Source of the DNA: Patescibacteria group bacterium
Lineage (GTDB): Bacteria > Patescibacteriota > Microgenomatia > UBA1400 > MFAQ01
Reading direction: 5' to 3'
Assembly: GCA_943355005.1 (NCBI GenBank)
Contig: CALRDV010000002.1
Coordinates: 131,826-195,825, forward strand
DNA length: 64,000 nt
Part shown: piece by piece, positions 21,099-45,720 of the stretch
Layout: every line of letters starts with the position of its first letter
Numbering within the stretch: position 1 is the first letter of the stretch
The notes under the pieces: generated by a model
What the model saw: the letters and a program-made list of their open reading frames with translations, nothing else
Databases searched by the model: none
Told to the model about the DNA's origin: nothing
Position numbers and translations under genes: made by a program

Positions 21099-21524
21099 AT
21101 GATAAAATTACCTTGCATGAAATATCTTTCCCGGCTGCTCGCCGCCACACTTCTATCTTGGTTTTTGCTTTTTCCCACTCTTACACACGCTGCAAGTCTC
21201 AACCTTGTCTCTCCCAGAGGTAACTGTGGAAACAACGAAATTGATACTGCTCTTGGCTGTATTTCCACAGAAGTGGGAACGGGTCCAAACACCTTCTTCA
21301 GTTCCATTATTGGCATCGCAGTCGGACTCGGTGGAGGTCTTGCCCTCCTTCTTATGCTTTATGGGGTCTTTATCGTCACCACCTCTGCCGGCATTCCGGA
21401 CAAGCTCAAGGAAGGCCAAGAAATTATTACCTCCGCCATCTCAGGTCTTATTTTTATCCTTCTCTCCGTCTTTCTCCTCAATTTCATCGGTATCAAAGTT
21501 TTAAGCCTACCTGGTTTACAATAG
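21099..21524 (+). CDS. Small two-TM secreted/membrane protein, putative VirB2/TrbC-like T4SS pilin paralog
   Basis: A classical signal peptide (cleavage near THA-AS), a Cys-containing mature region, and then two hydrophobic helices separated by a short polar loop (IVTTSAGIPDKLKEGQEI). Confidence 0.4.
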   Translation: MIKLPCMKYLSRLLAATLLSWFLLFPTLTHAASLNLVSPRGNCGNNEIDTALGCISTEVGTGPNTFFSSIIGIAVGLGGGLALLLMLYGVFIVTTSAGIPDKLKEGQEIITSAISGLIFILLSVFLLNFIGIKVLSLPGLQ

Positions 21525-21528
21525 AAAT

Positions 21529-21873
21529 ATGTTAAATTTCACCAAACAGGTCTATGCAGCTGCCGGTGGCACAGGAGTTGATATTTCAAGTATGGACAGC
21601 CCCGTCAAAGCCTTGATTCCCAACAATGCCGACCTGGGCAAATTATTCTCTCAACCCCTCCTCCGTTTTGTCTTTGTCGCCGTCGGTCTGGTTTTTATGT
21701 TTAATCTGGTCATGGCCGGCTGGGACCTTATGCTTAGCTCCGGAGATCCAAAGAAAGTTGCCACAGCCACCACCAGAGTCACCAACGGTTTTATGGGAAT
21801 AATTATATCGATGACGGCATATGTAGTTGTCAAAATCATCCTGACATTCTTAGGTCTAGGTACCATCATTTAA
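21529..21873 (+). CDS. Putative VirB2/TrbC-like pilin paralog
   Basis: An N-terminal leader MLNFTKQVYAAAGG, a first TM helix, the loop SSGDPKKVATA, and a second TM helix. This is the same architecture and loop motif as the 24167-26784 array. Confidence 0.5.
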   Translation: MLNFTKQVYAAAGGTGVDISSMDSPVKALIPNNADLGKLFSQPLLRFVFVAVGLVFMFNLVMAGWDLMLSSGDPKKVATATTRVTNGFMGIIISMTAYVVVKIILTFLGLGTII

Positions 21874-21900
21874 CAATCTCTTGTTATAATTCAAAACTGA

Positions 21901-22611
21901 ATGGAACCTTCAATAAAACACATTGCAATCTTGATGGACGGCAATCGTCGTTGGGCCAAACAAAAAGGTATGGAGCCTTTCAAGGGGCACGAGTACGCCG
22001 CCAACCATACAATTGAACCCCTTATTGAAAAATGTGTCGATCTAGGCATTCCCTATGTTACCTTTTGGGCCTTCTCCACCGAAAACTGGAAAAGGGATGA
22101 AACTGAAGTCAATGAACTTTTGAGAATATTTCGTTTTGCTTTCGGTGGTTTAGCCACCAGATTTATCAAGAGAGGAGCAAAGCTTAAAATTTTGGGGGAT
22201 ATTTCCCGCTTCCCTAAAGATATTGTTGAAAAATCTATCGAGACCATGAATAAGTCTTCACAGAACCATGCCATCACCGTTTCTTTTGCTCTAAATTATG
22301 GTGGTCGTGATGAGATCCTCCGAGCCGTCAAAAAAATCATTCAAGAAAAACTTACCTCTGACAACGTAAATGAAGAAATTTTTTCAGCTCATCTAGACAC
22401 TTCTGGTATGCCAGACCCGGATATGATCATCCGTACCGGAGGTGAACAAAGAACCTCCGGTTATCTACCTTGGCAGTCCGCCTACTCCGAACTTTTCTTC
22501 ACCCCCACCTTATTTCCCGACTTCACTCCCAACAAACTCGAAGAAATTATCCGCGACTTCAGCCACAGAGATAGACGATTCGGCGGCGACTCCACTCCAA
22601 AGACGAAATAA
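21901..22611 (+). CDS. uppS: Isoprenyl transferase (undecaprenyl diphosphate synthase)
   Basis: HIAILMDGNRRWAKQKG near the N-terminus and the family-typical C-terminal region ending FSHRDRRFGG. Confidence 0.9.
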   Translation: MEPSIKHIAILMDGNRRWAKQKGMEPFKGHEYAANHTIEPLIEKCVDLGIPYVTFWAFSTENWKRDETEVNELLRIFRFAFGGLATRFIKRGAKLKILGDISRFPKDIVEKSIETMNKSSQNHAITVSFALNYGGRDEILRAVKKIIQEKLTSDNVNEEIFSAHLDTSGMPDPDMIIRTGGEQRTSGYLPWQSAYSELFFTPTLFPDFTPNKLEEIIRDFSHRDRRFGGDSTPKTK

Positions 22612-22899
22612 AATCTCATCAGTTGCTGAAACATCAAAACCTTTTCTTTCAAATCTTTGTCTTATTTGCTGATAGCTACCAGTCAAAGGTATCTCTCCTC
22701 CGGGATACTTATAAATATTTAATTCTCGGTGATTCATTCTTTCTCCCGTAAAGCGCATATTAACAGGCTGATTCCGCCAATTTCGTGGTATTTCCATAAA
22801 AACAATCCTAAAACAATCCCCCCACCAAACACTCTCACGATTGTCACTCAGGTAAAGCCGAACATTTGGTGCAGAAGACTAGCCAACAAACCGCACGGA

Positions 22900-22990
22900 A
22901 GCTGTACATAGGAGCCGAAGGGAATCCCGCTAATGCGGGACGAGATAGTTACGAGTGAGTACGGTTTTTGGCGGTCTTCGAACCAACAAG
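22900..22990. repeat. Dispersed repeat copy (agttacgagtgagtacggtttttggcggtcttcgaacc type plus flanking unit)
   Basis: Matches 19265-19315 at ~90% identity. Located between the uppS and polyprenyl synthetase genes. Confidence 0.6.
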
Positions 22991-22995
22991 TGAAG

Positions 22996-24078
22996 CTAGA
23001 CTTCCCTCTCCACCATATACAAAGCAATCCCCTCAAGATAATTCACAGCTTCCTCATTTAATCCTATTCCGTGGAGCTTGGCCACACTACCACTCGCTCG
23101 TTTTGCATAATTCCTAGCCACTTCCACCGAATATTTATAAGAACCGCTTTCTTTAATGGCCTTTTTCGCCACTTCTATTTCATTTTTATTGGCATCCAAT
23201 TTCCCCCAAACTCTCATCAAGTCAATTTTTTGCTCCTTAGATCCTATCTCCATTGTCTTGGACACCAACAAAGTAACCTTTCCTTGTAACAAGTCAGAAT
23301 TTGCCGACTTTCCTGTTTTTTCTTCATCTCCATATACTCCCAGTACATCGTCTTGAAGTTGAAATGCGATACCCGCATCTACCGAATAATCATGCAGGAC
23401 ATCCATCGTCTCACGATTTAGCCCGGAAAGAATTCCTCCTATCAATAGTGGGTTTTCATAAGTATAAATCGCTGTCTTTGCCCTATGAAGACTCATTACT
23501 TTCTCTTCGGACATGTCTCCAAGTTTTGGCAAACTCGTGTCATACGCTTGTCCATAAGCAGTATTAGTTATCCCTCTCAGAAATTGTTTCATTGCATTAT
23601 TTACCTTTTCCGAGTCAAAACCACTAGTCAAAAGCCTCTCAAAACCCAGGCATAAGACAGCATCTCCCACATTCACCGCCATACTATCTCCATAATGTTC
23701 ATCACCATTTGCAAAAAATACTTGAGTTGTCGGCAAACCCCTTCTCACCAAATCTCTATCCATAAAATCGTCATGCATTAATAATGCTGTGTGAACAAGT
23801 TCCACTGCCTCCGCAGCCCTCCAAACTCTTTCATCAGACTTTATTCCACCAAGTAAAAAGCTGTAATAAATAAATGATGCCCTAATTCTCTTGGCTTTTC
23901 TTAAATTGTGTTCCTTAGCGTGAAGCAACATCTTTCTTATCAATTCTTTTTGTGATTGATTGAATCCAAAATTACTGGCAATCTCTTCCTCCCAATACTT
24001 TTCCAGCCTAGAATCAGCCTCTTTGGCTAACAGCTCCAATCTAGCTTTTGCCCGTCTACCTAAGTCATTTGTTTCCAT
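22996..24078 (-). CDS. Polyprenyl synthetase family protein (trans-isoprenyl diphosphate synthase)
   Basis: First and second Asp-rich motifs (LMHDDFMDRD and FQLQDDVLGVYGDEEKTGKS). Confidence 0.85.
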   Translation of the reverse strand: METNDLGRRAKARLELLAKEADSRLEKYWEEEIASNFGFNQSQKELIRKMLLHAKEHNLRKAKRIRASFIYYSFLLGGIKSDERVWRAAEAVELVHTALLMHDDFMDRDLVRRGLPTTQVFFANGDEHYGDSMAVNVGDAVLCLGFERLLTSGFDSEKVNNAMKQFLRGITNTAYGQAYDTSLPKLGDMSEEKVMSLHRAKTAIYTYENPLLIGGILSGLNRETMDVLHDYSVDAGIAFQLQDDVLGVYGDEEKTGKSANSDLLQGKVTLLVSKTMEIGSKEQKIDLMRVWGKLDANKNEIEVAKKAIKESGSYKYSVEVARNYAKRASGSVAKLHGIGLNEEAVNYLEGIALYMVEREV

Positions 24079-24093
24079 GTCTCCAATTTTACT

Positions 24094-24113
24094 GTAAAAT
24101 GACAGTAATCCAT
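24094..24113. promoter_or_regulatory. Inverted repeat TTACTGTAAAATGACAGTAA in the divergent promoter region upstream of the pilin array
   Basis: Half-sites TTACTGT(A) / (T)GACAGTAA. The site is ~55 nt upstream of the first pilin ATG and ~20 nt upstream of the divergently transcribed polyprenyl synthetase gene. Confidence 0.35.
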
Positions 24114-24166
24114 AAATTAATAAGGATTACGTCATCCTCGACCTGATCGAGGATCCACAAATACAT

Positions 24167-24487
24167 ATGATTATTCGACCAGCCCTGGCAGCCTTAGAAC
24201 CTCTAGAAGGACTTTATGCCCCGGGAAAAGCCATGGGAGGTAGTGGGGCTACTCTATCCACTCTACTAAATCCGCTAATTTATAATTTCCTCATCATCTC
24301 CGGAATTCTTGCTTTCATTGTCATTATTTTCGCCGGTTTTAGCTACATCACCGCTTCAGGGGACAAAGGAAAAATTGAGATGTCCCAGAACATGCTAAAC
24401 TATGGCATACTAGGTTTAATTGTTGTTGTTTTGGCCTTTTTAATTACTCGAGTTATTGGAGCCGTCTTTGGCTTTAAATTCTTTTAA
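24167..24487 (+). CDS. VirB2/TrbC-like pilin paralog 1
   Basis: 106 aa: TM1 (LIYNFLIISGILAFIVIIFAGF), loop TASGDKGKIEMSQN, TM2 (ILGLIVVVLAFLITRVIG). Confidence 0.55.
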   Translation: MIIRPALAALEPLEGLYAPGKAMGGSGATLSTLLNPLIYNFLIISGILAFIVIIFAGFSYITASGDKGKIEMSQNMLNYGILGLIVVVLAFLITRVIGAVFGFKFF

Positions 24488-24493
24488 ATACTT

Positions 24494-24862
24494 ATGATAA
24501 ATAATTTAAAATATTTTACATCTACCGTCTACGCAGCAGCTGGTGATGTCGTAGGAATTATAGATCTACCGGTAGGTGTTCCAAAAGAAGTTGTTCAAAC
24601 TACAGATATTATATCTGCCCTCATCCGCTTTTTAATCGTTATTGCCGGACTTTTCTCTCTTTTTCAATTTATAACCGGAGGTATCGCTTTTATTTCCTCT
24701 GGTGGTGACAAAGGTAAAATCACAGAAGCCCAAAACAAAATTCAAATGAGTATTATTGGACTAGTCATTATTACTGCTAGTTTTATAATCATCGCTCTCG
24801 TCAGTAGAATACTTTTCGGATCTTTTACCGCCATACTCGCACCAAAATTACAATCAATCTAA
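24494..24862 (+). CDS. VirB2/TrbC-like pilin paralog 2
   Basis: Leader MINNLKYFTSTVYAAAGD, TM1, loop SSGGDKGKITEAQ, TM2. Confidence 0.55.
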   Translation: MINNLKYFTSTVYAAAGDVVGIIDLPVGVPKEVVQTTDIISALIRFLIVIAGLFSLFQFITGGIAFISSGGDKGKITEAQNKIQMSIIGLVIITASFIIIALVSRILFGSFTAILAPKLQSI

Positions 24863-24863
24863 A

Positions 24864-25232
24864 ATGTTTAAAATTATATCTCCCATCTATGCATCTAACC
24901 CTATTGATTTAGGAAAGGAAATAGAGGGGTCCGGAGTATACCAAACAGGCATAAGTTCTACTGTTCAAACCAGTTTTGGAGGTTTTATTTCTTCTGTTAT
25001 TACTACACTAACTGTTGTTGGTAGTCTAGCCTTCGTTGTTTACTTTACTGTCGCGGGACTAAAATGGATTAGCGCCGGCGGCGACAAGGGCAAAGTAGCC
25101 GAAGCTCAAACCCAAATGACCCAATCCGCCATCGGCCTAATCGCCATTGTAGCCTCTTACTTTATCATCGGCATTGTCGGTGCCGTCCTTGGTTTAGATA
25201 TTCTCAATCCATTTAAAGCGCTTAAATTTTAA
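24864..25232 (+). CDS. VirB2/TrbC-like pilin paralog 3
   Basis: Leader MFKIISPIYASNP, TM1, loop SAGGDKGKVAEAQ, TM2. It starts 2 nt after paralog 2. Confidence 0.55.
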   Translation: MFKIISPIYASNPIDLGKEIEGSGVYQTGISSTVQTSFGGFISSVITTLTVVGSLAFVVYFTVAGLKWISAGGDKGKVAEAQTQMTQSAIGLIAIVASYFIIGIVGAVLGLDILNPFKALKF

Positions 25233-25236
25233 TAAC

Positions 25237-25590
25237 ATGATCATACAAATAGCCCAACCTGCTCTAGCTGCCGATGAAATAGTAAACAATGCCATCTCTA
25301 GCAAAGTCACCAGTTTAGGTGCGGGTGGAGGTCTAGCTTTTTACATTGCCACTCTCTGGCAAACCGTAATCACCGTAGGAGGCATCGCCTTCATTATTTA
25401 TCTCGTTTGGGGTGGCATAGAGTATCTCACTTCAGGGGGTGACAAGGGTCGGATTGACGATGCTCAGAAAAAAATTACCAGTTCTGTAATCGGTATTGTG
25501 ATCCTTGTTGCTTCCTACTCCATCACCTATTTCATCCAACAGGTCTTCAAGATTAACATTCTCAAACCTGTATTTCCCAACGCACTATGA
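25237..25590 (+). CDS. VirB2/TrbC-like pilin paralog 4
   Basis: Leader MIIQIAQPALAADE, TM1, loop TSGGDKGRIDDAQ, TM2. Confidence 0.55.
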   Translation: MIIQIAQPALAADEIVNNAISSKVTSLGAGGGLAFYIATLWQTVITVGGIAFIIYLVWGGIEYLTSGGDKGRIDDAQKKITSSVIGIVILVASYSITYFIQQVFKINILKPVFPNAL

Positions 25591-25949
25591 TCACAAGTTT
25601 TATTCCCAAAGTATTCGCCGCCGCCGATATAGAACTCCCTATCGGCGACACTGTTACCAAAAATAACTTTTTTGGCTATACATGCATCGGCCATCTCGTT
25701 AGCAACTTAGTTAGCGCCGCTTTTATTATTTCAGGTATCGCTTTCTTTGTTATCTTGGTCATGGGTGGAGTCCAGTGGCTGGTCTCAGGTGGCGACAAGG
25801 GTAAAGTCGAAAGTGCTCAGAAAAGTATTTCTGCAGCTCTCATCGGTTTAGCTATAGTTGCCAGTAGTTACGCTGTTTATATCTTAGTTCTTGAGTTCTT
25901 CGGTATCAATCTCGACGCGCTCTGTACAGCTAACCCACTAGGAAATTGA
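25587..25949 (+). CDS. VirB2/TrbC-like pilin paralog 5
   Basis: Leader MITSFIPKVFAAADI, TM1, loop VSGGDKGKVESAQ, TM2. It overlaps paralog 4 by 4 nt. Confidence 0.55.
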   Translation: MITSFIPKVFAAADIELPIGDTVTKNNFFGYTCIGHLVSNLVSAAFIISGIAFFVILVMGGVQWLVSGGDKGKVESAQKSISAALIGLAIVASSYAVYILVLEFFGINLDALCTANPLGN

Positions 25950-26011
25950 CAAGACTAAAATCATATATAATAGTAAGTATTACGAATATCAATTATTAAA
26001 AAATAAAAAAT

Positions 26012-26353
26012 ATGTCCTTTATTTCCCAAGTCTACGCAGCTACCGGCCAACTAGGAGTTCCCCAACCAACGGGTATGAAAATCACCGATATCGGTGTTCT
26101 TATTAGTCGTGTCATTTCCGTCGCCTTTATTATTGCCGGCATCCTTACCTTCGCTTTCTTAGTCATGGGTGGTATCGAGTGGCTAACTTCAGGTGGAGAC
26201 AAAGGTAAAACCGAAAGCGCCAGAAACCGTATCACTGCCGCTATCGTCGGTCTTGCCATCGTCGCCGCATCATGGGCTCTAATGAAACTCATTGCCTACT
26301 TCTTCGGTGTCGACGTCTTCGAGGGAAACATCAATATCCCTAAACCTTACTAA
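26012..26353 (+). CDS. VirB2/TrbC-like pilin paralog 6
   Basis: Leader MSFISQVYAATGQ, TM1, loop TSGGDKGKTESAR, TM2. Confidence 0.55.
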   Translation: MSFISQVYAATGQLGVPQPTGMKITDIGVLISRVISVAFIIAGILTFAFLVMGGIEWLTSGGDKGKTESARNRITAAIVGLAIVAASWALMKLIAYFFGVDVFEGNINIPKPY

Positions 26354-26372
26354 GCATTTAGGATTAGAAAAT

Positions 26373-26402
26373 AAAAAATCCCGGTTACCCGGGTTTTTTT
26401 AT
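26373..26402 (+). terminator. Rho-independent terminator
   Basis: AAAAAATCCCGGTTACCCGGGTTTTTTTAT: a GC-rich 7-bp stem followed by T7. Confidence 0.7.
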
Positions 26403-26418
26403 AATATATAATCAAATC

Positions 26419-26784
26419 ATGTCATTCCAATTAGTTACACAAGCTTATGCTGCGAGCTGGGCTTCAATTGATCCAGCATGTGTCGGCTCACAAATTGGCT
26501 CTGTAGATGCCAGTGATGTCGTCACCATTGGTGGTATTAAATGTTTAATTGCTAACCTTCTTTCTCCCATTCCTGGACTCATCGCTCTAGTGGCTGTCGG
26601 TGTACTCATCATGGCAGGTATTCGTCTTATGTCTGCCGGAGCCGAGCCCAAAGCCATCGCCAGCGCTTGGAACATGTTCACTTACGCCATCATCGGTCTC
26701 ATTCTTCTTGCAGTAGTTTGGCTAGTTCTTGTAATAATCGAGAACTTCACCGGAGCTCAGGTAACCAAATTCGGAATCCCTTAA
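26419..26784 (+). CDS. VirB2/TrbC-like pilin paralog 7 (divergent)
   Basis: Leader MSFQLVTQAYAASWA, TM1 (LLSPIPGLIALVAVGVLIMAGI), loop SAGAEPKAIASAW, TM2. Its own promoter-like ATAATATATAAT box follows the upstream terminator. Confidence 0.5.
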   Translation: MSFQLVTQAYAASWASIDPACVGSQIGSVDASDVVTIGGIKCLIANLLSPIPGLIALVAVGVLIMAGIRLMSAGAEPKAIASAWNMFTYAIIGLILLAVVWLVLVIIENFTGAQVTKFGIP

Positions 26785-26824: not shown

Positions 26825-29800
26825 GTGAAGAAATCCTTTTTGATAGTTACCGTTACTTTCCTTCTGGCTCTAGTTCTGACTAGTATATCTTTGAATGCAA
26901 AAATAAGTTTTGCCGCCAACCCGGCACCGGAAGCAACACCAACAACAGACCCTAGTACTTCAACATCAGTTGCCGAACAAGCCAACCCCGGTCCACCGAT
27001 AGGTATTCCTTGTGGCAAAACCATGTGTCTCGATAATGAAGTCTGTGTTCAATACAAAGGTGATGTTGATATGCACTGTGCTCCTGCAGTTCCAACCCCT
27101 TCTATTTCAGGACCAACAACACCTACCCCCACCCCATCAGGTGTCATCACCCCCACCACTGCTCCCATTCCCGCTGCCCCTCTTCCTGACAAATGCCCGG
27201 AAGGTACAGGAGTATTTCCTCCAAACGGAAAATGCTACAGCAACATCAAGAGTACTCCCAAAGACCCCAATATTTATGACAAAACTTGTATCTATCAGCC
27301 AGTTGTCCAATACACCGATACTCGTAGTTACAACACCCCAAACAAACAATCCTTTGTTCAATGTGGAAAAGGTGACAGCCCTTTTGGACCTGGTCCTGGT
27401 GGAAAAGACCCAAATTGCGATGTTGCACTTCTAGTAAACACCGATGTCAAACAAGCCGAGCTTGGAAGCTACGGACCCAGTCTTCCTGCTGAATATGTCT
27501 ACTCTCCGGATTTTCTGGCTCAAAATTATCTCTACAATTCTTTATTCGGTCGACCCATGGACTTCTCCAATAGCGGTGAGAATAACGGTGAAGTTCCAAA
27601 CAGGGAAGCTTATCGTACATACTGGCGCCTTATGCCGGCTAGCAACCAAGCCAATCTACGCTCATTTATATTGAATATGGCGAACGATAATCAAATTGAT
27701 AATATCTTTTTTGATTTTACGGATACCAACGGTCTACAGAAAAAAACCGACTTTAAATCCCTCTATAAAGCTTTAGAAAAACAAGTCATCTTATTTTGGA
27801 AGTTCCCTTTCATTAGAGTTGGTTGCCTTATAACCTACCCTGTATGTCCTGAATATGCACAAGCCACAAGAGAATTAAAGCCAGTATTTCAAGATTTATT
27901 CGACACTGCACTTAGACTAGATCTTCCCTTAGCTACCCCCGCAATACAAGCATACAATCTGGCCATCGCAGCTTTTGATAAAGATCTTGACGGTCCATAT
28001 AATGCTTTCGTCCCTTTAGACTTCAACAGTGTTCGAAGTTATATCCTAAAAAAACCGGACGTAAAAGAAAACGATGCATATAAATTCTTCAAATATTTTG
28101 AGCCACTACCTAGATATAAACTCTACAATGTCTCATTCGAACACTTACCTTACGTTGGTGCTATCTACCAAGGATTGCTTTCTCCCAAATTCGGCATGTT
28201 ACCCGCACTTCAACCACAGTGGGTAGTTGATAAATATACTACTCCTGATGGTCTCTCAGACTACAGAATGGGAAACAAGCCCGAAGAACTACCGGAAGTT
28301 GCTATAGCTCACCAGGGATTTATAGATCAGCTAGAAGCCGAAGCCAAAGCAATAATCACCAGTCCTCTTGGGTGGATAGCTGATAAGATTTCAGGAATTT
28401 TCTCAGATGAAAAAACTCTAAAAAAAGGATACATCACAGCAGACAAAGACAAATATACCGATGATGAGCGCATTGGCGAAATCAGAGAGGTCTATACCAA
28501 CCCCGTAGGTTGTCCCCTTCCCCTTAGTTATCATGTCTTAGCTCCCAAAACAGCCGCCAAATCTGTTGACGATCACCATCAAGTAATTATTATTCCCGGA
28601 CAGAGACTTGCTTGGTTCTACACGCCGTCTTGTAGTAATCTCGGGGAAAAATGTTCAGTTGTAGGAGGTAAAACTGTTTGTGTTCCCGCCACTTGCACAG
28701 GAAAAGGTAAATACATTGAAGGAGATCAGTGCTGTGAACCAGCCTGGAGCGTCGAAGCCACCGAAGATGCCAAAGCTTTTGATGTCCTAAACAATCCCAA
28801 ACAGGCCGACATCAGAGAGGCTGTGGCCACCAATCCGGAATACTCCTTTTATACTATGATGTTGCCGGATGGTAAACAGAGTATTCCTGAAGCTTCCATT
28901 GATGCTCCGGTAGCTCATCACATTGCAGTCAAAACCCTGCCCAATGGTAAAGGTGAAGTTCTAAATGAATATGAACCTATAAACCGCATCAGCAATGGAG
29001 CCCAAGACTCAATACATTACCTTCAAAACTGCTGGACTGTCCCAGGGAGTCTTCAAAACTCACCCAGATGCAGTCTTACAATAGCCTCAGCTTCCGCATG
29101 CGCCGAACCCCCTGTTTTTACCCCAGATCCTAGCTGTAAAATTAAAAACAACACTCTCAAACTCCCAGACTCTTTAGTAAAAGCAATCGAAGCCGCAGCG
29201 ACCGCCTTCAAAGTTCCTCCTAGTTTAATTATTGGCTTATTCTATGGTGAAGGAGCTTTTAACCCTGGTTCCAAATACTTGCAAGAAGACTTTGTCTCCC
29301 AAAATCTTGCTGCGTGCACCGTAATCCCAGGTTGCAATCCTAGTGCAAATTCGATAAATTCCATTGTCCAGTATCCATCAATCTGGCTGAAACCATATGT
29401 AGACGCAGTCAAAGTCTTTGATCCGGCTCGAAAACCAAATTTATGTAATCTTTTGGATGGCATTTTTGCTATGACCAAAGGAATCGCTCAAACACAGTAT
29501 GGCAATCCTCTCTTTACCGGAAAAACTTGTTTCAATATTCCATTAAACAATGGCTCAGCCAAATCATCAGGCACCTGTTCTTGGGACGAAAGAAATGTCG
29601 AAACCGCTATTCGTGTTTGGGAACTAGGTACTACTTATTCCGAAGGCAATAGTTGTCTTACCAAGGCCGGGAGCTGTCTTACCGGTGGCGGTTACGCAGC
29701 ACAGTGTCCCACAGGAGGAGATACATGCGAAACCAAAGATAGGAGATATTCTCAAGCCAGTCATAACGGCTGTGTTTACGACATTTACAAAGAAAACTAA
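26825..29800 (+). CDS. Large secreted Cys-rich protein (~991 aa) with Pro/Thr-rich linker. Hypothetical, co-located with the pilin array.
   Basis: A signal peptide/anchor (LIVTVTFLLALVLTSISLNA) and a PT-rich low-complexity segment (PTPSISGPTTPTPTPSGVITPTTAPIPAAP). It has numerous Cys residues spread over the length and no ATPase or enzymatic motif I can recognise with confidence. Confidence 0.5.
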   Translation: MKKSFLIVTVTFLLALVLTSISLNAKISFAANPAPEATPTTDPSTSTSVAEQANPGPPIGIPCGKTMCLDNEVCVQYKGDVDMHCAPAVPTPSISGPTTPTPTPSGVITPTTAPIPAAPLPDKCPEGTGVFPPNGKCYSNIKSTPKDPNIYDKTCIYQPVVQYTDTRSYNTPNKQSFVQCGKGDSPFGPGPGGKDPNCDVALLVNTDVKQAELGSYGPSLPAEYVYSPDFLAQNYLYNSLFGRPMDFSNSGENNGEVPNREAYRTYWRLMPASNQANLRSFILNMANDNQIDNIFFDFTDTNGLQKKTDFKSLYKALEKQVILFWKFPFIRVGCLITYPVCPEYAQATRELKPVFQDLFDTALRLDLPLATPAIQAYNLAIAAFDKDLDGPYNAFVPLDFNSVRSYILKKPDVKENDAYKFFKYFEPLPRYKLYNVSFEHLPYVGAIYQGLLSPKFGMLPALQPQWVVDKYTTPDGLSDYRMGNKPEELPEVAIAHQGFIDQLEAEAKAIITSPLGWIADKISGIFSDEKTLKKGYITADKDKYTDDERIGEIREVYTNPVGCPLPLSYHVLAPKTAAKSVDDHHQVIIIPGQRLAWFYTPSCSNLGEKCSVVGGKTVCVPATCTGKGKYIEGDQCCEPAWSVEATEDAKAFDVLNNPKQADIREAVATNPEYSFYTMMLPDGKQSIPEASIDAPVAHHIAVKTLPNGKGEVLNEYEPINRISNGAQDSIHYLQNCWTVPGSLQNSPRCSLTIASASACAEPPVFTPDPSCKIKNNTLKLPDSLVKAIEAAATAFKVPPSLIIGLFYGEGAFNPGSKYLQEDFVSQNLAACTVIPGCNPSANSINSIVQYPSIWLKPYVDAVKVFDPARKPNLCNLLDGIFAMTKGIAQTQYGNPLFTGKTCFNIPLNNGSAKSSGTCSWDERNVETAIRVWELGTTYSEGNSCLTKAGSCLTGGGYAAQCPTGGDTCETKDRRYSQASHNGCVYDIYKEN

Positions 29801-39136: not shown

Positions 39137-39138
39137 TC

Positions 39139-39789
39139 ATGGCAGACAACGTTAAATCCTCCACCCAAGAAAGCCTCGATATTTACACTATCAAAAACCA
39201 TTTGGTTTTTCTCAAAGATGGTTCTTGTTCTCTGGTACTAAAAACTACCGCTATCAACTTCAATTTATTATCTGAAGAAGAACAAGACGCCACTATTTAT
39301 GGCTACGCCGGATTACTCAACTCTCTCTCATTTTCTATTCAAATCCTTGTTCGATCTCAACGAAAGAATATTTCCGATTATATAAATCTTCTGGATACCC
39401 GTATTCAAAGTACTCCTTCCCAAAAAGTCAAAGAACAGCTTCTTTCCTATCGTCAATTTGTAAAATCTCTAGTTAAAGAAAATCGCGTTTTGGAGAAAAA
39501 GTTCTATATTATTATTTCTTTCTCTGCTGTTGAGCTTGGAGTTACTAAATCAACCTTTAATCCGTTTGCCAAAACTCCCCAAAAACCTCCTTTTGATATC
39601 GAATATATTGAAGAAAAAGCCTCCATGGCTCTCTATCCTCGACGCGACCACATCATCCGACAATTTGCCAGAATTGGTCTCAAGGCAAGCCAACTCACCA
39701 CCAGCGAACTCGTCACACTCTTCTATACTATTTACAATCCTGGTAGCGTCACCCAACAAATCACTCCGGGTAAATCCGTCGCCTCCTAA
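39139..39789 (+). CDS. Hypothetical protein, possibly a separately encoded VirB4 N-terminal-like domain
   Basis: 216 aa, translationally coupled with both neighbours. Weak resemblance to T4SS ATPase N-terminal domains (LVFLKDGSCSLVLKTTAINFNLLSEEEQDA). Confidence 0.35.
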   Translation: MADNVKSSTQESLDIYTIKNHLVFLKDGSCSLVLKTTAINFNLLSEEEQDATIYGYAGLLNSLSFSIQILVRSQRKNISDYINLLDTRIQSTPSQKVKEQLLSYRQFVKSLVKENRVLEKKFYIIISFSAVELGVTKSTFNPFAKTPQKPPFDIEYIEEKASMALYPRRDHIIRQFARIGLKASQLTTSELVTLFYTIYNPGSVTQQITPGKSVAS

Positions 39790-39818: not shown

Positions 39819-41693
39819 ATGGCTCTGAATCTATTTTCTCTTGGCAAAAAAGCCGCTCCGACAACAGCTGTTGAATCAACGGTACCAGCCAACACGCCTC
39901 CTCATAACTCCAACACTTCGGGGTTAAAGTCCACCGCTTCTAGCCAGTCAGTTCAAGATATTATTGCTCCATCGGCTGTCGAAGTAGATTTTTCTTTTAT
40001 CAAAATAGATGATAACTACGTCCGAACTCTTTTTGTCACTGGCTACCCGCGTTACGTTTCGGCTAATTGGCTCTCCCCCCTGATCAATTTCAACCACTCC
40101 TTGGATATTTCCATGTTTGTTTACCCCTCCGACTCCAAAGATACTTTAGATAGTCTCAGGCGACGCATTGCCGAAATGGAAGCAGAAATAAATACTGATA
40201 TCGAACGAGGTCGTATCCCCCGCGCTGCCACCGAAGCCGGATTAGAAGACGCCAAGGTTCTCCAATCTCAACTTGTTAAAGGAGCAGAAAGATTTTTTCA
40301 ATTCTCTTTGTATATCAGCATCTCCGGAGACTCAGTCAAAGAGCTAGACACTGTTACTGCTCAAGTTCAATCCATGTTGGCTTCCCTCCTTATCATCAGC
40401 AAGGTCGCCTCTTTATCTATGGAGGATGCTTTCAAAACCACTTTGCCGTATTGCAAAGATAAATTAATGTTAACTCGGAACATGGATACCACAGCCCTCT
40501 CTACTACTTTTCCATTTACATCTTCTGAACTCTCTGATAATCAAGGTATTCTTTACGGCGTCAACGCTCATAATGATTCTCTCGTAATTTTTGATCGCTT
40601 CTCTCTTGAGAATGCCAATATGCTCATACTCGCCACTTCCGGTGCCGGTAAGTCTTATGCAGTAAAGCTCGAAATTCTTCGTTCTCTTATGTTCGACTGC
40701 CAAGTTATTATTCTAGACCCGGAAAACGAATACGAAATGGTCACCAAATCTGTCGGTGGCAACTATCTCTCTTTCTCCACCGGTGCTACTCACAAAATTA
40801 ACCCCTTCCAAATCGCCAGACCACAAGATAGCAGTGAAGATGAGATGGGTTACAAATATCTTTTCCTTATGTCGCTTCTAAAAATCATGATTGGTGTCAT
40901 GGATCCTATTGAAGAAGCCACTATGAACCGCGCTTTAGTTCTCACTTATCGTCAGAAGGGCATTTCGGAAGATCCAACTACTCACATTCTGGAGGCACCC
41001 AGAATGGAAGATCTTTATCGTGCTCTTATCGGCATGGAAGAAAGTGTTTCCAAGACTTTAGCTGCCAGACTAGAAAGATATGTCATGGGTGGTGTAAAAG
41101 GTATTTTTGATCAGCAAAGCAATATCGACATCAATGCTCCCGTCACCGTTTTTACTTTAAGGGACACTGCCGACGAAATTCGCCCTATTATCATGTTTAT
41201 GATTCTAGACTTTGTTTGGAACCAAGTCCGCAAAGACTTACGCAAAAGAATTCTCGTTGTCGATGAGGCTTGGTACCTCATGAGATACGAAGATTCCGCC
41301 AAAATTCTTCAGGGTTTTGTCAAACGCGCACGTAAATATTACTTTGGTGTATCTATCATTTCTCAGAACGTCGACGACTTTCTTGGTTCAGCTTACGGCA
41401 AAGCTATTATTACCAACTCTGCCCTCAAACTCCTCCTTAAACAATCCTCAGCTGCCATCAATCAGATCTCTGAAGTCTTCTATCTCTCTCAAGGAGAGAA
41501 ACAACTTCTTCTCTCTGCTGGCCAAGGTGAAGGTATTTTCTTCGCCGGTATGAATCACGTAGCTATCAAAATTATTTCCTCTGCCGACGAACATGCACTT
41601 GCTACCAGTAAACCGGCCGAAATTCTCGAAGCCAGAAAGAAAGAAAAAGAAGCTCGAGAAGCTGAAATCGCAGCCGATAAAGCCAACACCTAA
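39819..41693 (+). CDS. VirB4/TrbE/CagE-family T4SS ATPase
   Basis: Walker A NMLILATSGAGKSYAV, Walker B RILVVDEAWYLM, and an N-terminal YVRTLFVTGYPRYVSANWL segment typical of the VirB4 family. 624 aa. Confidence 0.75.
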   Translation: MALNLFSLGKKAAPTTAVESTVPANTPPHNSNTSGLKSTASSQSVQDIIAPSAVEVDFSFIKIDDNYVRTLFVTGYPRYVSANWLSPLINFNHSLDISMFVYPSDSKDTLDSLRRRIAEMEAEINTDIERGRIPRAATEAGLEDAKVLQSQLVKGAERFFQFSLYISISGDSVKELDTVTAQVQSMLASLLIISKVASLSMEDAFKTTLPYCKDKLMLTRNMDTTALSTTFPFTSSELSDNQGILYGVNAHNDSLVIFDRFSLENANMLILATSGAGKSYAVKLEILRSLMFDCQVIILDPENEYEMVTKSVGGNYLSFSTGATHKINPFQIARPQDSSEDEMGYKYLFLMSLLKIMIGVMDPIEEATMNRALVLTYRQKGISEDPTTHILEAPRMEDLYRALIGMEESVSKTLAARLERYVMGGVKGIFDQQSNIDINAPVTVFTLRDTADEIRPIIMFMILDFVWNQVRKDLRKRILVVDEAWYLMRYEDSAKILQGFVKRARKYYFGVSIISQNVDDFLGSAYGKAIITNSALKLLLKQSSAAINQISEVFYLSQGEKQLLLSAGQGEGIFFAGMNHVAIKIISSADEHALATSKPAEILEARKKEKEAREAEIAADKANT

Positions 41694-41695
41694 CC

Positions 41696-44695
41696 ATGGC
41701 TAACTACGAAAAAGAAATTAAGGAAGCAGTTGGAGTCCTTGATTATCTCGATAGAAAAATCGATTACAACGAGGAACCAGAAGCCGCAAAATGGTTATCT
41801 TCTGGATTCTTTTACTACAAAGAATACTTTCGTTTAAACAAAAATCCAGAGTTCAAATTTGACCAAAAAGTCGAAAATTACGATTCTTTTCAAAAGAATG
41901 TAGAAAAACCAGTCTTCAACAAGATTATTCAATTTTATATTTCTCTACAGAATCTTCCGGATGAAGTTTATCGTAATGTTCCAATTCGTTTTTTAGGAGA
42001 ACCAGAATTAGTTAGTGATGGCAGAGTAAAGATAAAAATTCATTTTAATGAAATATTTGTCAGAGGGTTACTCTCAGACATTCCCAGCTATCTCGAACTA
42101 GATACAGGGTCTATTTCCAATATTGATGATGTCTTAAAAGTCGGAGATATTAAGACTCCAGACAATATAAAAGTAATAACCAGTGAAAATGAAATTATAG
42201 TTTCCCTTACAGACCTCCAAGAAAAGGAAACTCCTACTACAGTATCAACAACCGATGAAAAAATAAGTGAAGAAGAGGTAGCTGATACGAAAGAATTAAC
42301 AGAGCAGGCTAACCTTGAAGAAGAATCGATAAAACCCAAAGAACTGAATGTTGGCGATGCTGGAAGTGTCCCTCCCGAAATAGAAAGTCTTGTTGGTGAA
42401 TACAAAAAGAATCTTAATCGTTTAAATGAGCAAGAGATCAAAGATAATCATCAAAAATCCGTTGCAGAACAAGTAAAAATCGCAATTGAACACTCAAATC
42501 GACGAGAATTAATATTGGCGAACCGGCGAGAACGAGAAGCAAAGGGTGAAAAATTTCAAGACCCGGACCAGGTAATTGTTAGTTATGGCTCTCCTAAGGA
42601 CAACACTAAAGAGGATGCTCTTCAACTATCCTTTAATGCAATTGAACGAACGGCGACACTTTACAGTGGTTTCAAAACACTTCCTAAAAACATACAAAAA
42701 CAAATAGTCTTTCAGGCAGTAGAACTAAATACTATTGGAATTTTCGATTTGGATGCCGCTATTCAAACAGCTTCATACCAATTAGGAATTAAGGGTATAA
42801 CCTCACCTTTTGTCTCAAGTATCTTCGAAGAAATAGATCACGAGGACAACTTTTTAAAAGAAACCGAATCAAAACTTCATCAAAATGAAAAATCAATCGA
42901 TTTCTTGAAGTCTAAAAACACTCTTACCGAATCAGAACGACAGTCTCTTATTAAACTAATCAAGGAAAACGGAGATCTTTCGACAAACCTTGGAAAAATC
43001 CCCACAAATTTTAATAGTTTTCTTTTATCCAATGAAGACAAATTTAAAGAATATTCCAAAATCATAGACCACAAAGATGCTGATCCTAAAGACGTTCTAG
43101 ACCTAAAAGAAAACACTTTAGATGCCAACAAAAAGATACTATCTATCCAAAAAAACTTACTTCTTAACGGTATCCAACCTAAAACATTCACAGATTTAGA
43201 TAAAATTAATGGTCTCGCTGAAGCCATTCAAAAGGATTTAAAAGTTCTAAATAAAAACGCTACTTATGAAGGATCATATTCCGCAGCTGTTGTCGGAATG
43301 GCTCCTGGAGGCTCCGGCGAAGCCCTTGTAATTCTAAATTTTTCCAAAGGATTAACAGGTGAAACTCTTCGCAAAGCAGAGGCCTTTGCTTTAGCAAATC
43401 CAAAATCAGCTACAGCTATATTTTTAAGGAACAACACTAAGACCGTTGAGATTGCTCGAAGTTACATTAGAAAAATAGAAAATTCCCCTCTAGGAAAAGA
43501 AATTCTACCCGCTATAGGGAAAGCCAATTTTATTATTAGTGCAGTAACAAACCCCGTTGGAGCCTTAAAAAGCTGGGCCGGCAAAAAAGCCGGCGAACAA
43601 TTGGCTATCCGCATTTCGGAAAAAATTGGAAATGAAGTACTCAAAAATGCGGCAAATACCCTACTTACTCAAGGAATGAAGGGGGGGGTAAAAAAACTAG
43701 CATCAGAAGCGGCTACCAAAATGGCCGCTAAAGTTGCCACTTGGGCAGCGGTCAAACTCGGTATAAGTCTTTCAGCTGAATCCCTAAACGCTATCATGCC
43801 TGGTCTTGGAGTAATTGTGGATATTGTCATCCAAGCAATCATATGGGTTGCTGAAAAAACAATCGGTCAAGTTAAGAAAAATTTAGATTCTCTATGGAGA
43901 GAGATGGGCTGGGGAGAAGAATTCCGCACGCGAGATATCATAGTTCCTGTAGTAGCAGTCGTCGCAACAGCAACCACCTTCGTCATCGCCAAAGGTTTTA
44001 TTATAAAAAAAGCGACCCAAATAGCGGCCATCTCAGCTGTCAAGATACTCCTTTCCGCAGGAGGTTTTATTCTTGCTTATGTCATGTTCGCCTACCTTGT
44101 TGCTCCAATTCTATCCACTTTAGTCCAGTTCGACAGTCTCGAAAAAGTCGAGTACCCATCTGCAACATCAAACGAACCGGCTATTCCGGGGTGTCCGTCT
44201 CGATGGCCTGTCACAGGTTCATTCAGAATCACTCAAGGACCGGGTGGTAAATATTCACATTACAGCTCCGGATACGACCAATCTGTAGATATTGCTGCCC
44301 CATCAGGTACAACTGTATTTAGCACCTCAGATGGAATTGTCAGTTTTGCCGCCGTCTCCGGACCATATTTAAATACAAATGTTGTTTTTGTTGACTCTAA
44401 ATTACCAGACGGAAAGTCTTTTCAAGTTATCTATGCTCACTTAAGTTTTATGAAAGTACACAAAAACGACAAAGTTAAAGTTGGAGATATAATTGGATCT
44501 TCAGGTACAGCCGGCTCCGGAGCTCACTTACACTATGAGTACAAGGGGATTAAGTACAATCAGTGTCCGGCCGGAAACTTAAAATTAGCCGAAAACTGCG
44601 ATTCCCACTCAGTTCCGGGAGCAGGCTTCAGATGTGTACCCGACGTCGGCACCTTCTTATATACTAATGGTGGAGCTGGAATAGTAGGGCATTAA
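41696..44695 (+). CDS. Large (999 aa) membrane-associated protein with C-terminal M23 (LytM) peptidase domain, a putative T4SS-associated cell-wall hydrolase (VirB1 analog)
   Basis: The C-terminus has YDQSVDIAAPSGTTVFSTSDGIVSF ... YAHLSFMKVHKNDKVKVGDIIGSSGTAGSGAHLHYEY (HxxxD / HxH M23 metallopeptidase signature). There is a long coiled-coil/charged middle and TM helices around residues 740-790. Confidence 0.65.
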   Translation: MANYEKEIKEAVGVLDYLDRKIDYNEEPEAAKWLSSGFFYYKEYFRLNKNPEFKFDQKVENYDSFQKNVEKPVFNKIIQFYISLQNLPDEVYRNVPIRFLGEPELVSDGRVKIKIHFNEIFVRGLLSDIPSYLELDTGSISNIDDVLKVGDIKTPDNIKVITSENEIIVSLTDLQEKETPTTVSTTDEKISEEEVADTKELTEQANLEEESIKPKELNVGDAGSVPPEIESLVGEYKKNLNRLNEQEIKDNHQKSVAEQVKIAIEHSNRRELILANRREREAKGEKFQDPDQVIVSYGSPKDNTKEDALQLSFNAIERTATLYSGFKTLPKNIQKQIVFQAVELNTIGIFDLDAAIQTASYQLGIKGITSPFVSSIFEEIDHEDNFLKETESKLHQNEKSIDFLKSKNTLTESERQSLIKLIKENGDLSTNLGKIPTNFNSFLLSNEDKFKEYSKIIDHKDADPKDVLDLKENTLDANKKILSIQKNLLLNGIQPKTFTDLDKINGLAEAIQKDLKVLNKNATYEGSYSAAVVGMAPGGSGEALVILNFSKGLTGETLRKAEAFALANPKSATAIFLRNNTKTVEIARSYIRKIENSPLGKEILPAIGKANFIISAVTNPVGALKSWAGKKAGEQLAIRISEKIGNEVLKNAANTLLTQGMKGGVKKLASEAATKMAAKVATWAAVKLGISLSAESLNAIMPGLGVIVDIVIQAIIWVAEKTIGQVKKNLDSLWREMGWGEEFRTRDIIVPVVAVVATATTFVIAKGFIIKKATQIAAISAVKILLSAGGFILAYVMFAYLVAPILSTLVQFDSLEKVEYPSATSNEPAIPGCPSRWPVTGSFRITQGPGGKYSHYSSGYDQSVDIAAPSGTTVFSTSDGIVSFAAVSGPYLNTNVVFVDSKLPDGKSFQVIYAHLSFMKVHKNDKVKVGDIIGSSGTAGSGAHLHYEYKGIKYNQCPAGNLKLAENCDSHSVPGAGFRCVPDVGTFLYTNGGAGIVGH

Positions 44696-44697
44696 TT

Positions 44698-45720
44698 ATG
44701 AAAAACTTAAAAGAATTTTTCCAAAAAATTACTCAATCCCCAAAAATACTTGTACTTGTAGGTATTTTTCTGTTTTTCTTCATCATCGTACTTATAATTC
44801 TTTTTAGCGGTAAACCTACGGAAAAAGATGCCACTTCCATTACTCCAACACCTACACCGGTGGTCGGAATTATTACCATGGAGGAACCTGTCCCCACCCC
44901 AACGCTTAAAATTGTCTGGACTACTCAAGATTTAAATGTCCCAGAGACTATGGACATATTCTCTATTAAAAATCCTCTAATAAATCAAAAAACAGGCGAT
45001 CTTTTGGCTCAAAAGCTTGGATTCGAATCAAGCAACGAACAAGAATCTATCAGTGAAAATCTCCGGATCTGGTCAAAAGGCTCCGCTTCCATCATTCTCA
45101 ATTTTGAAGACAATTTACTTCAATACTCCGCAGGAACATTACCTCAACTAGCAGTACAAAACGTTACTGACGATACCTATTTTGTTACGGCCAGAAATTA
45201 CTCTCAGAATGTCTTTGGAATTGGTACAGCTCAGGGATTAATAAACCACAGTGTTACGTATTTAGATGAACACGACGCCCCCATTAGTTCGGATAAGGCA
45301 GTGGTCATTAGGGTTTCTTTTTACCAGTCGGTAAATGTTTTACCTGTAGCCACCATTTCACAATCAGGTGCAGTTTTCACCCTTTATCTAGACAAAAAAC
45401 TATCACTCCTAAGTATGTCCGTCAAAAATGCCTACTCAGAATTATCTTCGCTTGGCAAATTCAAGACAACGCCCCTAGTTGATTTAATAAGCAACTCGGA
45501 TTCCATGGCATTAAGAATAAATGCTTCCAGTAATCAAGATATCAGTTCAGAAATGGTGTCTTCAAAAACAATTACTTTTAATCAGGCTTCAGCCCAAACT
45601 GCCTATCTCTCAAAAGAAAATCAGTTAATACCAGTATATCTATTAAGTGGCACTGTTAGAGCCGGTATCGTTCAAAATCAACCTGGTCTATACATCCTCC
45701 CCATTATTCTTCCACAATAG
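44698..45720 (+). CDS. Membrane-anchored hypothetical protein, candidate VirB8-like component
   Basis: 340 aa: an N-terminal TM anchor (ILVLVGIFLFFFIIVLIILF), a PT linker, then a globular domain. The assignment is by position after the M23 protein and by the bitopic topology only. Confidence 0.3.
   Translation: MKNLKEFFQKITQSPKILVLVGIFLFFFIIVLIILFSGKPTEKDATSITPTPTPVVGIITMEEPVPTPTLKIVWTTQDLNVPETMDIFSIKNPLINQKTGDLLAQKLGFESSNEQESISENLRIWSKGSASIILNFEDNLLQYSAGTLPQLAVQNVTDDTYFVTARNYSQNVFGIGTAQGLINHSVTYLDEHDAPISSDKAVVIRVSFYQSVNVLPVATISQSGAVFTLYLDKKLSLLSMSVKNAYSELSSLGKFKTTPLVDLISNSDSMALRINASSNQDISSEMVSSKTITFNQASAQTAYLSKENQLIPVYLLSGTVRAGIVQNQPGLYILPIILPQ

Follow-up and report, generated by a model that had tools for sequence, protein, structure and literature searches.

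What is the function of nine genes for pilin-like proteins on a bacterial chromosome, when they stand next to a VirB4 ATPase gene and neither a relaxase nor a coupling protein is seen with them? The question is raised by a locus of a Patescibacteria group bacterium (Microgenomatia; assembly GCA_943355005.1) that lies in a stretch of 64,000 nucleotides of contig CALRDV010000002.1 (positions 131,826 to 195,825), here called the window. Coordinates are positions in this window, for which open reading frames (ORFs), G+C content and protein families were computed. We conclude that the locus very probably encodes a chromosomal, non-conjugative system for type IV secretion (T4SS) with nine pilins, which derives from monoderm conjugation machinery of the CD1110 type (mating-pair-formation class MPF_FATA) and most likely serves contact-dependent exchange with a host bacterium. 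Relatives were compared by tblastn and ORF comparison over 69 related loci, together with two long relatives (L072 and L073) that were fetched around the gene for a Cys-rich protein of ca. 990 amino acids (aa).

The ATPase core and the pilin array

The central component of the locus is a VirB4 ATPase of 624 aa. It scored 355 bits with the NCBIfam model NF045971 (VirB4-like, CD1110 family), above the cut-off of 325, and matched the solved Thermoanaerobacter VirB4 domain (PDB 4AG5) with an E-value of 1e-45. The Walker A motif (ATSGAGKS, residues 272–279) and the Walker B motif (ILVVDEAW at residue 478) are both intact and were found as the initial annotation had read them when it proposed a VirB4/TrbE ATPase. 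The scan for relatives of VirB4 covered one genome per species. Identity was 80–92% to Candidatus Collierbacteria (Microgenomatia/OP11) and 41–57% to other sampled lineages of the candidate phyla radiation (CPR), and the best of more than 5000 plasmid records was 35% identical. By identity, the only measure used for grouping, VirB4 appears to belong with the patescibacterial proteins rather than with those of plasmids or integrated conjugative elements (ICEs).

The gene preceding virB4 encodes a protein of 216 aa that aligns to the N-terminal part of VirB4 models (positions 13–134 of the CD1110 model). It matched NF041427 (TrsD/TraD) with an E-value of 2.4e-6, under the family cut-off, is assigned to the TraC-like family PF26593 in precomputed Pfam data, and is 30% identical to the equivalent ORF of a Pontibacillus megaplasmid discussed below. 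On the strength of these alignments the protein is a free-standing VirB4 N-domain homologue of the known TrsD/TraC-like family. The earlier suggestion of a possible split VirB4 N-domain ORF was therefore right about the domain and wrong about the split; a broken VirB4 fragment was rejected in view of the family membership. Upstream of this gene lies prgI, whose product matched PF12666 above the cut-off, as expected from its description as PrgI/VirB3-like. This protein has two transmembrane (TM) segments, a Pro/Thr-rich linker and a C-terminal β-rich segment, and is conserved over its full length in relatives.

The genes of the system are arranged in three groups on the + strand, with intergenic gaps of −4 to 65 nt inside each group. 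The first group consists of pilins 1 and 2 and uppS and is followed by an antisense polyprenyl synthetase gene. The second comprises seven tandem pilin genes (24167–26784), the 991-aa gene and the 580-aa gene, followed by antisense genes for proteins of 958 and 533 aa. The third runs from pyrG through prgI, the trsD-like gene, virB4 and the 999-aa M23 peptidase gene to a 340-aa bitopic gene. All ORFs listed in the initial annotation were recovered at the same coordinates. The components of the locus are as follows.

21099–21524, + strand: pilin-like paralog 1, 141 aa (PF18895 22.4 bits, E 1.3e-4, under the gathering score)
21529–21873, + strand: pilin-like paralog 2, 114 aa (PF18895 26.0 bits; NF045849 E 2e-4)
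24167–24487, + strand: pilin paralog 3, 106 aa (PF18895 39.4 bits)
24494–24862, + strand: pilin paralog 4, 122 aa (PF18895 20.5 bits, under the gathering score; aligns with the paralogs including the loop motif GGDKGK)
24864–25232, + strand: pilin paralog 5, 122 aa (PF18895 29.3 bits)
25237–25590, + strand: pilin paralog 6, 117 aa (PF18895 33.1 bits)
25587–25949, + strand: pilin paralog 7, 120 aa (PF18895 32.8 bits)
26012–26353, + strand: pilin paralog 8, 113 aa, candidate major pilin (PF18895 35.6 bits)
26380–26393, + strand: terminator-like G+C-rich hairpin CCCGGTTACCCGGG followed by T7, after pilin 8 (consensus scan only)
26419–26784, + strand: pilin paralog 9, 121 aa, 2 Cys (PF18895 35.7 bits)
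26825–29800, + strand: secreted Cys-rich protein, 991 aa (signal peptide, 32 Cys)
29828–31570, + strand: polytopic membrane protein in the VirB6 position, 580 aa (at least 7 TM segments; conserved position)
31690–34566, − strand: soluble, acidic, Cys-free protein of a lineage-restricted family, 958 aa (conserved directly after the VirB6-like gene)
34623–36224, − strand: protein of the other lineage-restricted antisense family, soluble and highly charged, 533 aa (homologues in 9 related loci)
38081–39136, + strand: PrgI/VirB3-like protein, 351 aa (PF12666 33.4 bits, cut-off 27, residues 8–91)
39139–39789, + strand: TrsD-like protein, 216 aa (NF041427; PF26593 TraC-like)
39819–41693, + strand: VirB4 ATPase, 624 aa, monoderm CD1110/MPF_FATA type (NF045971 355 bits; PF19044 92 bits)
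41696–44695, + strand: membrane protein ending in an M23 peptidase, 999 aa, VirB1 analogue (PF01551 62.6 bits; PF14693 45.5 bits)
44698–45720, + strand: bitopic protein in the VirB8 position, 340 aa (one TM segment, residues 17–35)

All nine small ORFs with two TM segments matched PF18895 (T4SS_pilin), and six exceeded its gathering score (26.6 bits). Those starting at 21099, 21529 and 24494 scored below it (22.4, 26.0 and 20.5 bits), with E-values of 1e-4 to 1e-5. A sub-threshold match to NF045849 (pilin-like conjugal transfer proteins, Mbov_0395 family) was also obtained for seven of the nine. The paralogs share a VirB2-type layout with a variable N-terminal segment, a first TM segment, a short basic loop (consensus SGGDKGK) and a second TM segment, and have diverged to 14–28% identity to paralog 1. 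The description of the nine as pilin-like paralogs stands.

Among the paralogs, pilin 8 usually shows the best conservation in Collierbacteria relatives (67–82% in most loci). A consensus scan placed a promoter-like site at 25946–25974 ahead of it and the terminator-like hairpin behind it; judged from the same scan, the hairpin may act as an attenuator. Since pilin 8 is both the paralog that is usually conserved best and the one bracketed by these two signals, we infer that it is likely the major subunit. The N-termini of the pilins differ. Pilin 1 has a classical signal peptide of ca. 31 aa, 3 Cys and two TM segments. Six others (pilins 2, 4, 5, 7, 8 and 9) open with a short leader of ca. 9–17 aa with the pattern M-x-(L/F)-(I/V)-(P/S)-Q-(V/A)-(Y/F)-A-(A/S), and pilins 3 and 6 have a looser P-A-L-A-A version. 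Classical Sec signal peptides are longer than this leader, whose motif is also kept in orthologues (loci L006–L046) and may mark a processing site.

Two side observations concern the ATPase core. The virB4 genes of six relatives are interrupted in frame, exactly within the Walker A motif, by an insertion of ca. 460–570 aa (L041:1970–5554, L042:2945–6253, L043:1233–4826, L045:7466–11041, L050:226–3456 and L063:5253–8846). The junctions read ATSGAGK / S-[LV]-[AST]-Y...FVHN / SYAVK and show the intein hallmarks Ser1, C-terminal His-Asn and Ser+1; the L041 insertion matched the Pfam families Intein_splicing, LAGLIDADG_3 and Hom_end. The VirB4 of the window is without an intein. Furthermore, a 166-aa ORF at 8807–9307 on the − strand, ca. 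29 kb upstream of the cluster, scored 23.4 bits with PF05101 (VirB3; cut-off 23.9) and gave a faint TrbD match as well. The match may be due to chance, or the ORF may encode a second VirB3-like protein.

Channel candidates, antisense genes and putative cell-wall enzymes

The 580-aa protein has an N-terminal hydrophobic segment in addition to its TM segments, and its gene always lies between the ca. 990-aa gene and prgI in relatives. No VirB6, TrbL or PrgH match was found in Pfam or NCBIfam, and 24 orthologues scanned singly gave no Pfam match either. A profile search of 5.8 billion proteins with this family returned 235 homologues (E ≤ 0.001), the best 120 of which were all unannotated. The family profile retrieved nothing from the PDB, and alignment with the polytopic protein of the Pontibacillus cassette by hhalign gave a probability of 7.5%. 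In 15 relatives a counterpart of the bitopic 340-aa protein, 20–46% identical, is encoded downstream of the M23 gene. The protein evolves fast, with 7 usable homologues in 5.8 billion proteins, and the AlphaFold2 (AF2) model built from 7 sequences was unusable, with a predicted local distance difference test score (pLDDT) of 43. The protein had no Pfam match, a 20-sequence profile searched against the PDB found no VirB8-like chain (only an unrelated aminotransferase, E 0.003), and hhalign comparison with the Pontibacillus bitopic protein was negative.

The initial annotation had named these proteins polytopic VirB6/TrbL-like and bitopic candidate VirB8-like. The topologies were confirmed, as was the conserved position of the 580-aa gene, but homology to VirB6/TrbL or VirB8 was not found in the searches just described. 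The two labels are plausible as analogies from topology and position. Similarly, the proposed Gram-positive-type inventory held by family match for VirB3, VirB4 and the M23 peptidase as VirB1 analogue, and not for VirB6 and VirB8 homology. VirB6 and VirB8 are scarcely detectable in Microgenomatia in general (PMC12102498), which agrees with the negative results for both proteins. In L072 and L073 an extra 188-aa gene, absent from the window, lies between the ca. 990-aa and VirB6-like genes (L072:12955–13521, L073:13011–13577). In L073 three small extra ORFs are inserted there, one of them an AbiEii-like gene (faint match).

The interval between the VirB6-like gene and prgI holds one to three large antisense genes (ca. 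380–1070 aa) in nearly all Collierbacteria relatives. The encoded proteins are soluble, highly charged and Cys-poor and form two lineage-restricted families without a known domain. The 958-aa family occurs in 21 of the 24 related loci showing this interval and is rare, with no more than 28 cluster representatives among 1.84 billion proteins; homologues of the 533-aa protein are found at the equivalent place in 9 related loci. Neither protein, nor any of the orthologues, matched a Pfam, NCBIfam or PHROG family, and the two proteins of the window lack a P-loop. A cryptic relaxase or type IV coupling protein (T4CP) was rejected on these grounds. These Cys-free, fast-evolving families might be dedicated T4SS parts, acting either as translocated substrates or effectors for the host bacterium or as a cytoplasmic module for recruitment in place of the VirD4-type coupling protein that is missing, a speculative proposal that we consider unlikely.

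Two proteins of the locus may act on peptidoglycan. The 999-aa protein matched PF01551 (Peptidase_M23) over residues 862–950, which bears out the earlier view of a VirB1-like hydrolase analogue with a C-terminal M23 domain. Three TM segments precede this domain, and therefore the first ca. 700 residues should be cytoplasmic and the peptidase extracellular. The zinc motif HLH and the preceding YAHL are present, and the first motif reads D-Q-S-V-D, not H-x-x-x-D. PDB matches were to ShyA and to bL25, and residues 58–180 form a module like the C-terminal domain of bL25/TL5 (PF14693). This module, which lies within the first 200 residues (window 41696–42300), shares 32% identity with the C-domain of the bL25 encoded in the same genome (57258–57944). 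Since the orthologues in relatives align only from ca. residue 208 onward, the N-terminal extension of ca. 200 aa appears to be specific to this genome.

The 991-aa protein, described before as Cys-rich and secreted, indeed has a signal peptide and 32 Cys. It has 42 homologues of ca. 1000 aa, none of them annotated, and gave no match to Pfam or NCBIfam models and no PDB sequence match. An AF2 model from the 42-homologue alignment reached a pLDDT of 70 and a predicted template modeling score of 0.65, with residues ca. 120–750 mostly above 80. Foldseek searches of the core model against the PDB and BFVD returned nothing under E 1. The C-terminal domain (ca. residues 780–990) is probably lysozyme-like or lytic-transglycosylase-like.

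Chromosomal setting and relation to known systems

The locus is interleaved with housekeeping genes and has an origin-proximal setting in the chromosome. Pfam matches confirmed the housekeeping identity of uppS, the polyprenyl synthetase gene and pyrG, as recognized before. Downstream of the third group follow dnaN and dnaA on the − strand and then rnpA, yidD, yidC and jag; dnaN starts 48 nt past the last T4SS gene.

19324–21078, − strand: SpoIID-domain secreted protein, 584 aa (PF08486 59.7 bits; same position filled in L072 and L073)
21901–22611, + strand: uppS, undecaprenyl-diphosphate synthase (PF01255 244.9 bits; 27 nt past pilin 2; position kept in L072 and L073)
22996–24078, − strand: polyprenyl synthetase, between the two pilin groups (PF00348 172.8 bits; position kept in L072 and L073)
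36370–38055, + strand: pyrG, CTP synthase (PF06418 343 bits; 25 nt upstream of prgI)
45768–48681, − strand: dnaN and dnaA, then rnpA-yidD-yidC-jag (Pfam DnaN and DnaA; beside the T4SS in relatives too)

Comparison with other CPR genomes recovered the full gene order in more than 20 related loci or genomes. In L072 and L073 the order is a 650-aa uncharacterized protein (−), a DUF5657 protein (−), a bPH-domain protein (−), a SpoIID-domain protein (−), two pilins, uppS, polyprenyl synthetase (−) and seven pilins, followed by the ca. 990-aa protein, the polytopic protein of ca. 600 aa, one to three large antisense genes, PrgI, TrsD, VirB4 and M23. Loci centred on virB4 extend this order with the bitopic ca. 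340-aa gene, dnaN (−) and dnaA (−). About 30 kb, including uppS, polyprenyl synthetase, dnaN and dnaA, are kept across Collierbacteria at 50–92% protein identity. The sole local peculiarity is pyrG, whose position is common only to L028 among the sampled relatives. The G+C content is uniform across the window (0.38–0.44). All tRNA genes lie at or before 10.4 kb, the nearest more than 5 kb upstream of the locus, and a transfer-messenger RNA (tmRNA) gene lies at 15.7–16.1 kb. No tRNA adjoins the locus, and no flanking repeat signature was seen. The conserved synteny next to dnaN-dnaA, the uniform G+C content and the lack of a flanking tRNA indicate that the locus is vertically inherited and chromosomal, and is not an ICE or island.

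Conjugation genes are absent from the window. In Pfam scans of 36 window ORFs, which included every large unassigned ORF and most others (10 also with NCBIfam), no relaxase, VirD4, FtsK-like protein or integrase was matched, and the Walker A motif is absent from all 8 large proteins checked besides VirB4. The statements of the initial annotation that the window holds no coupling protein or relaxase and that the locus is fixed in the chromosome rather than part of an ICE were thus both upheld, the latter by synteny from the SpoIID gene to dnaA, even G+C content and the lack of a tRNA or integrase; no relaxase or T4CP gene was found adjacent to the locus.

Some further features of the surroundings were noted. 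A four-gene block upstream of pilin 1 (16145–21078, − strand) is conserved in relatives and encodes four proteins: one of 649 aa that is uncharacterized, one of 73 aa (DUF5657 is found in its orthologues in relatives), one with a bPH domain and the one with the SpoIID domain. Because SpoIID is a peptidoglycan-remodelling domain, the block may be functionally tied to the T4SS, and the SpoIID-domain protein is possibly an accessory cell-wall enzyme. The tmRNA gene (15695–16110, + strand; Rfam 111 bits) has a tag peptide that, as predicted by ARAGORN, is unusually long, with 32 residues ending in PVYAFA. Three tRNA-Ser genes are clustered at 10127–10444; one has a predicted ACT anticodon, and A34 is unusual in bacterial tRNA-Ser. 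The GC skew is negative in every 2-kb bin of the window (1–64000), on both sides of dnaA-dnaN, so that no skew inversion marks an origin in the window despite the classical oriC gene neighbourhood.

T4SSs of this kind were described for Patescibacteria between 2023 and 2025, and the present finding is a correct rediscovery. Wang et al. (2023, Cell; PMC10633639) reported an essential T4SS in Ca. Southlakia epibionticum that is closest to Gram-positive conjugative systems, lacks a relaxase and a coupling protein, and has a pilin series essential for epibiotic growth. Quinonero-Coronel et al. (2025; PMC12102498) surveyed 3,035 Patescibacteria genomes and found a monophyletic VirB4 clade inside MPF_FATA, with TrsD as the commonest VirB4 partner, PrgI also present, and 441 pilin arrays of 2–11 genes, with enrichment in Microgenomatia and Saccharimonadia. 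Hardly any relaxases occurred, and the loci were placed close to dnaA, dnaN and rnpA. In a FEMS review of 2025 (PMC12857230) the patescibacterial systems figure as a new and recognised branch within the T4SS superfamily.

The T4SS of Southlakia ML1 (SEML1_0006–0019) and the window locus are both chromosomal, origin-proximal and of Gram-positive type. Both have a divergent array of VirB2-like pilins, PrgI, TrsD, VirB4 and peptidoglycan hydrolases after virB4, and in neither cluster is a relaxase or coupling protein recognisable. The two differ in lineage, Southlakia belonging to Saccharimonadia and the window to Microgenomatia (VirB4 is 41–44% identical to loci labelled Saccharibacteria), and in pilin number, with six in Southlakia against 2 + 7 here. 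Unlike Southlakia, the window locus has uppS and polyprenyl synthetase genes between the pilin groups, the ca. 990-aa Cys-rich protein and the antisense 958-aa and 533-aa genes. From the Microgenomatia type in the survey nothing essential differs. The window locus matches it in VirB4 clade, TrsD, PrgI, pilin array, proximity to dnaA, dnaN and rnpA, lack of a relaxase and scarcity of VirB6 and VirB8; the genes for the ca. 990-aa, antisense and bitopic proteins are left there as unannotated grey genes (PMC12102498).

The same gene order from pilin to M23 is found outside the CPR, on the megaplasmid of Pontibacillus sp. ALD_SL1 (NZ_CP062975; L071, 351–362 kb). This cassette of a Firmicute encodes two pilin-like proteins, a polytopic protein of 779 aa, a two-TM protein of 116 aa, a TrsD-like protein of 274 aa, VirB4, an M23 protein of 1050 aa and a bitopic protein of 364 aa. 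VirB4 is 35% identical to that of the window and the pilins are related (BLAST E-values down to 1e-8). The cassette differs in having only two pilin genes and no ca. 990-aa Cys-rich protein, and the sequences of its polytopic and bitopic proteins are not detectably similar to those of the 580-aa and 340-aa proteins. The megaplasmid is typed as non-mobilizable, and the cassette lies beside flagellar genes with no relaxase annotated within ±12 kb. The survey suggests that the pilins were possibly co-opted from diderm systems (PMC12102498). The existence of a pilin-to-hydrolase cassette outside the CPR argues instead that they were already part of the monoderm system ancestral to this one and do not stem from diderm T4SSs.

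Further known systems allow comparison. The mycoplasma ICEs, whose cassettes are grouped with that of Pontibacillus as the monoderm CD1110/Mbov_0395–0397 type, carry a T4CP and conjugate, unlike the window locus (PMC12857230). The Trs system of Staphylococcus pGO1/pSK41 (TrsC, TrsD, TrsE, TrsG) also has a free-standing TrsD directly upstream of VirB4 (TrsE), a VirB3-like protein (TrsC) and a hydrolase (TrsG) (PMC12102498), but is plasmid-borne and conjugative, with a relaxase and T4CP and without pilins, and TrsG has SLT and CHAP domains, not M23. The VirB2 arrays of Bartonella, Anaplasma and Rickettsia resemble the window locus in tandem pilin amplification and divergence and in belonging to host-associated, non-conjugative T4SSs (PMC12102498). 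They differ in being MPF_T systems of diderms, which have VirD4 and an outer-membrane core complex and act on eukaryotic host cells.

Proposed function and its alternatives

With neither a relaxase nor a coupling ATPase seen alongside the locus, and with a conserved synteny beside dnaN-dnaA, the apparatus is most probably not a conjugation module. In the VirB2/VirB4 paradigm the pilin is extracted from the membrane by VirB4. By homology, VirB4, its free-standing TrsD-like partner and the two-TM PrgI/VirB3-like protein, which would hold the other two at the membrane, would form the energy centre, and this assembly would sit on a channel made of the polytopic 580-aa protein, probably together with the bitopic 340-aa protein. 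The membrane-anchored M23 peptidase, probably with the lysozyme-like end of the 991-aa protein, would locally open the peptidoglycan. VirB4 would pull the VirB2-like two-TM pilins out of the membrane, and these would travel through the channel to build a filament or conduit that spans the cell wall or extends outside the cell. The contact-dependent exchange with a host bacterium would consist of protein export or of uptake of host molecules. This role in host interaction is the best current reading, extrapolated from the essentiality that transposon sequencing revealed in Ca. Southlakia epibionticum.

Several observations weigh against this proposal. A T4SS requirement for epibiotic growth is known only for Ca. 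Southlakia epibionticum, which is not a member of the Microgenomatia (PMC10633639). VirB6 and VirB8 homology could not be demonstrated for the 580-aa and 340-aa proteins, and the M23 peptidase may be catalytically altered, as the first His of HxxxD is off the canonical spacing. Finally, T4CP homologues are common elsewhere in patescibacterial genomes (PMC12102498), and the search described here covered the 64-kb window.

The alternative that survives best concerns the form of the apparatus. The pilin-like proteins might build no extended pilus and serve instead as a short stalk or a channel lining embedded in the membrane or the wall, with the paralogs as structural variants in one complex. 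The Mbov_0395-type pilin-like proteins of wall-less mycoplasma ICEs may form such a stalk or lining. Seven of the nine paralogs resemble this family, which belongs to monoderm conjugative elements, two such genes are present in the Pontibacillus cassette, and pili are not known from Gram-positive T4SSs (PMC12857230). On the other hand, the presence of nine divergent paralogs with variable extracellular N-terminal segments suggests surface exposure and diversification, and reviewers of the field favour a pilus (PMC12857230). The bracketing of one paralog by promoter-like and terminator-like signals, as is often seen for major pilins, also speaks for a filament. We therefore regard a stalk or lining as doubtful, though a serious contender.

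DNA uptake is the second alternative, with the locus acting like the ComB T4SS of Helicobacter pylori or the archaeal Ced system. Both of these systems lack a relaxase and a coupling protein. Import of DNA would be useful since CPR bacteria are unable to make nucleotides, a comFC gene is present in the window (14189–14863), and VirB4 gave weak matches to the DNA-import models CedB (61 bits) and CedD (21 bits). However, both scores fall far short of the respective cut-offs (700 and 600) and reflect an ATPase fold that is shared, and no ComB-type outer components are present. Transformation of Southlakia needs ComEC and, according to the review, also type IV pili (PMC10633639; PMC12857230). Deletion of comEC ends competence there and leaves viability intact, yet the T4SS is essential (PMC12857230), which makes DNA uptake a very improbable function of the T4SS. 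The initial annotation had offered a repurposed apparatus for cell–cell attachment or DNA uptake; a repurposed, non-conjugative T4SS agrees with the literature, and DNA uptake is the weaker suggestion in view of ComEC in Southlakia.

An ICE or its decayed remnant, with relaxase and coupling protein outside the window or too divergent to be recognised, was rejected as barely credible: VirB4, TrsD, PrgI and the hydrolase are homologous to conjugation proteins of Gram-positive plasmids and ICEs, the relaxase search was confined to the window, and 109 relaxases occur among the 3,035 patescibacterial genomes (PMC12102498), but the shared order with housekeeping genes across Collierbacteria is a sign of vertical descent, neither an integrase nor a flanking tRNA or repeat signature was seen, the G+C composition is uniform, and no second P-loop is present in the other large proteins checked.

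Few machines are known to be indispensable to CPR bacteria in their epibiotic way of life. The patescibacterial T4SS, to which we assign the window locus, is among them, and this significance belongs to the published work. The locus described here is a further well-preserved example from the Microgenomatia. It provides handles in the form of a candidate major pilin, a secreted protein of ca. 990 aa with an unmatched core fold, two antisense families, and a Firmicute cassette that bears on the origin of the pilins.

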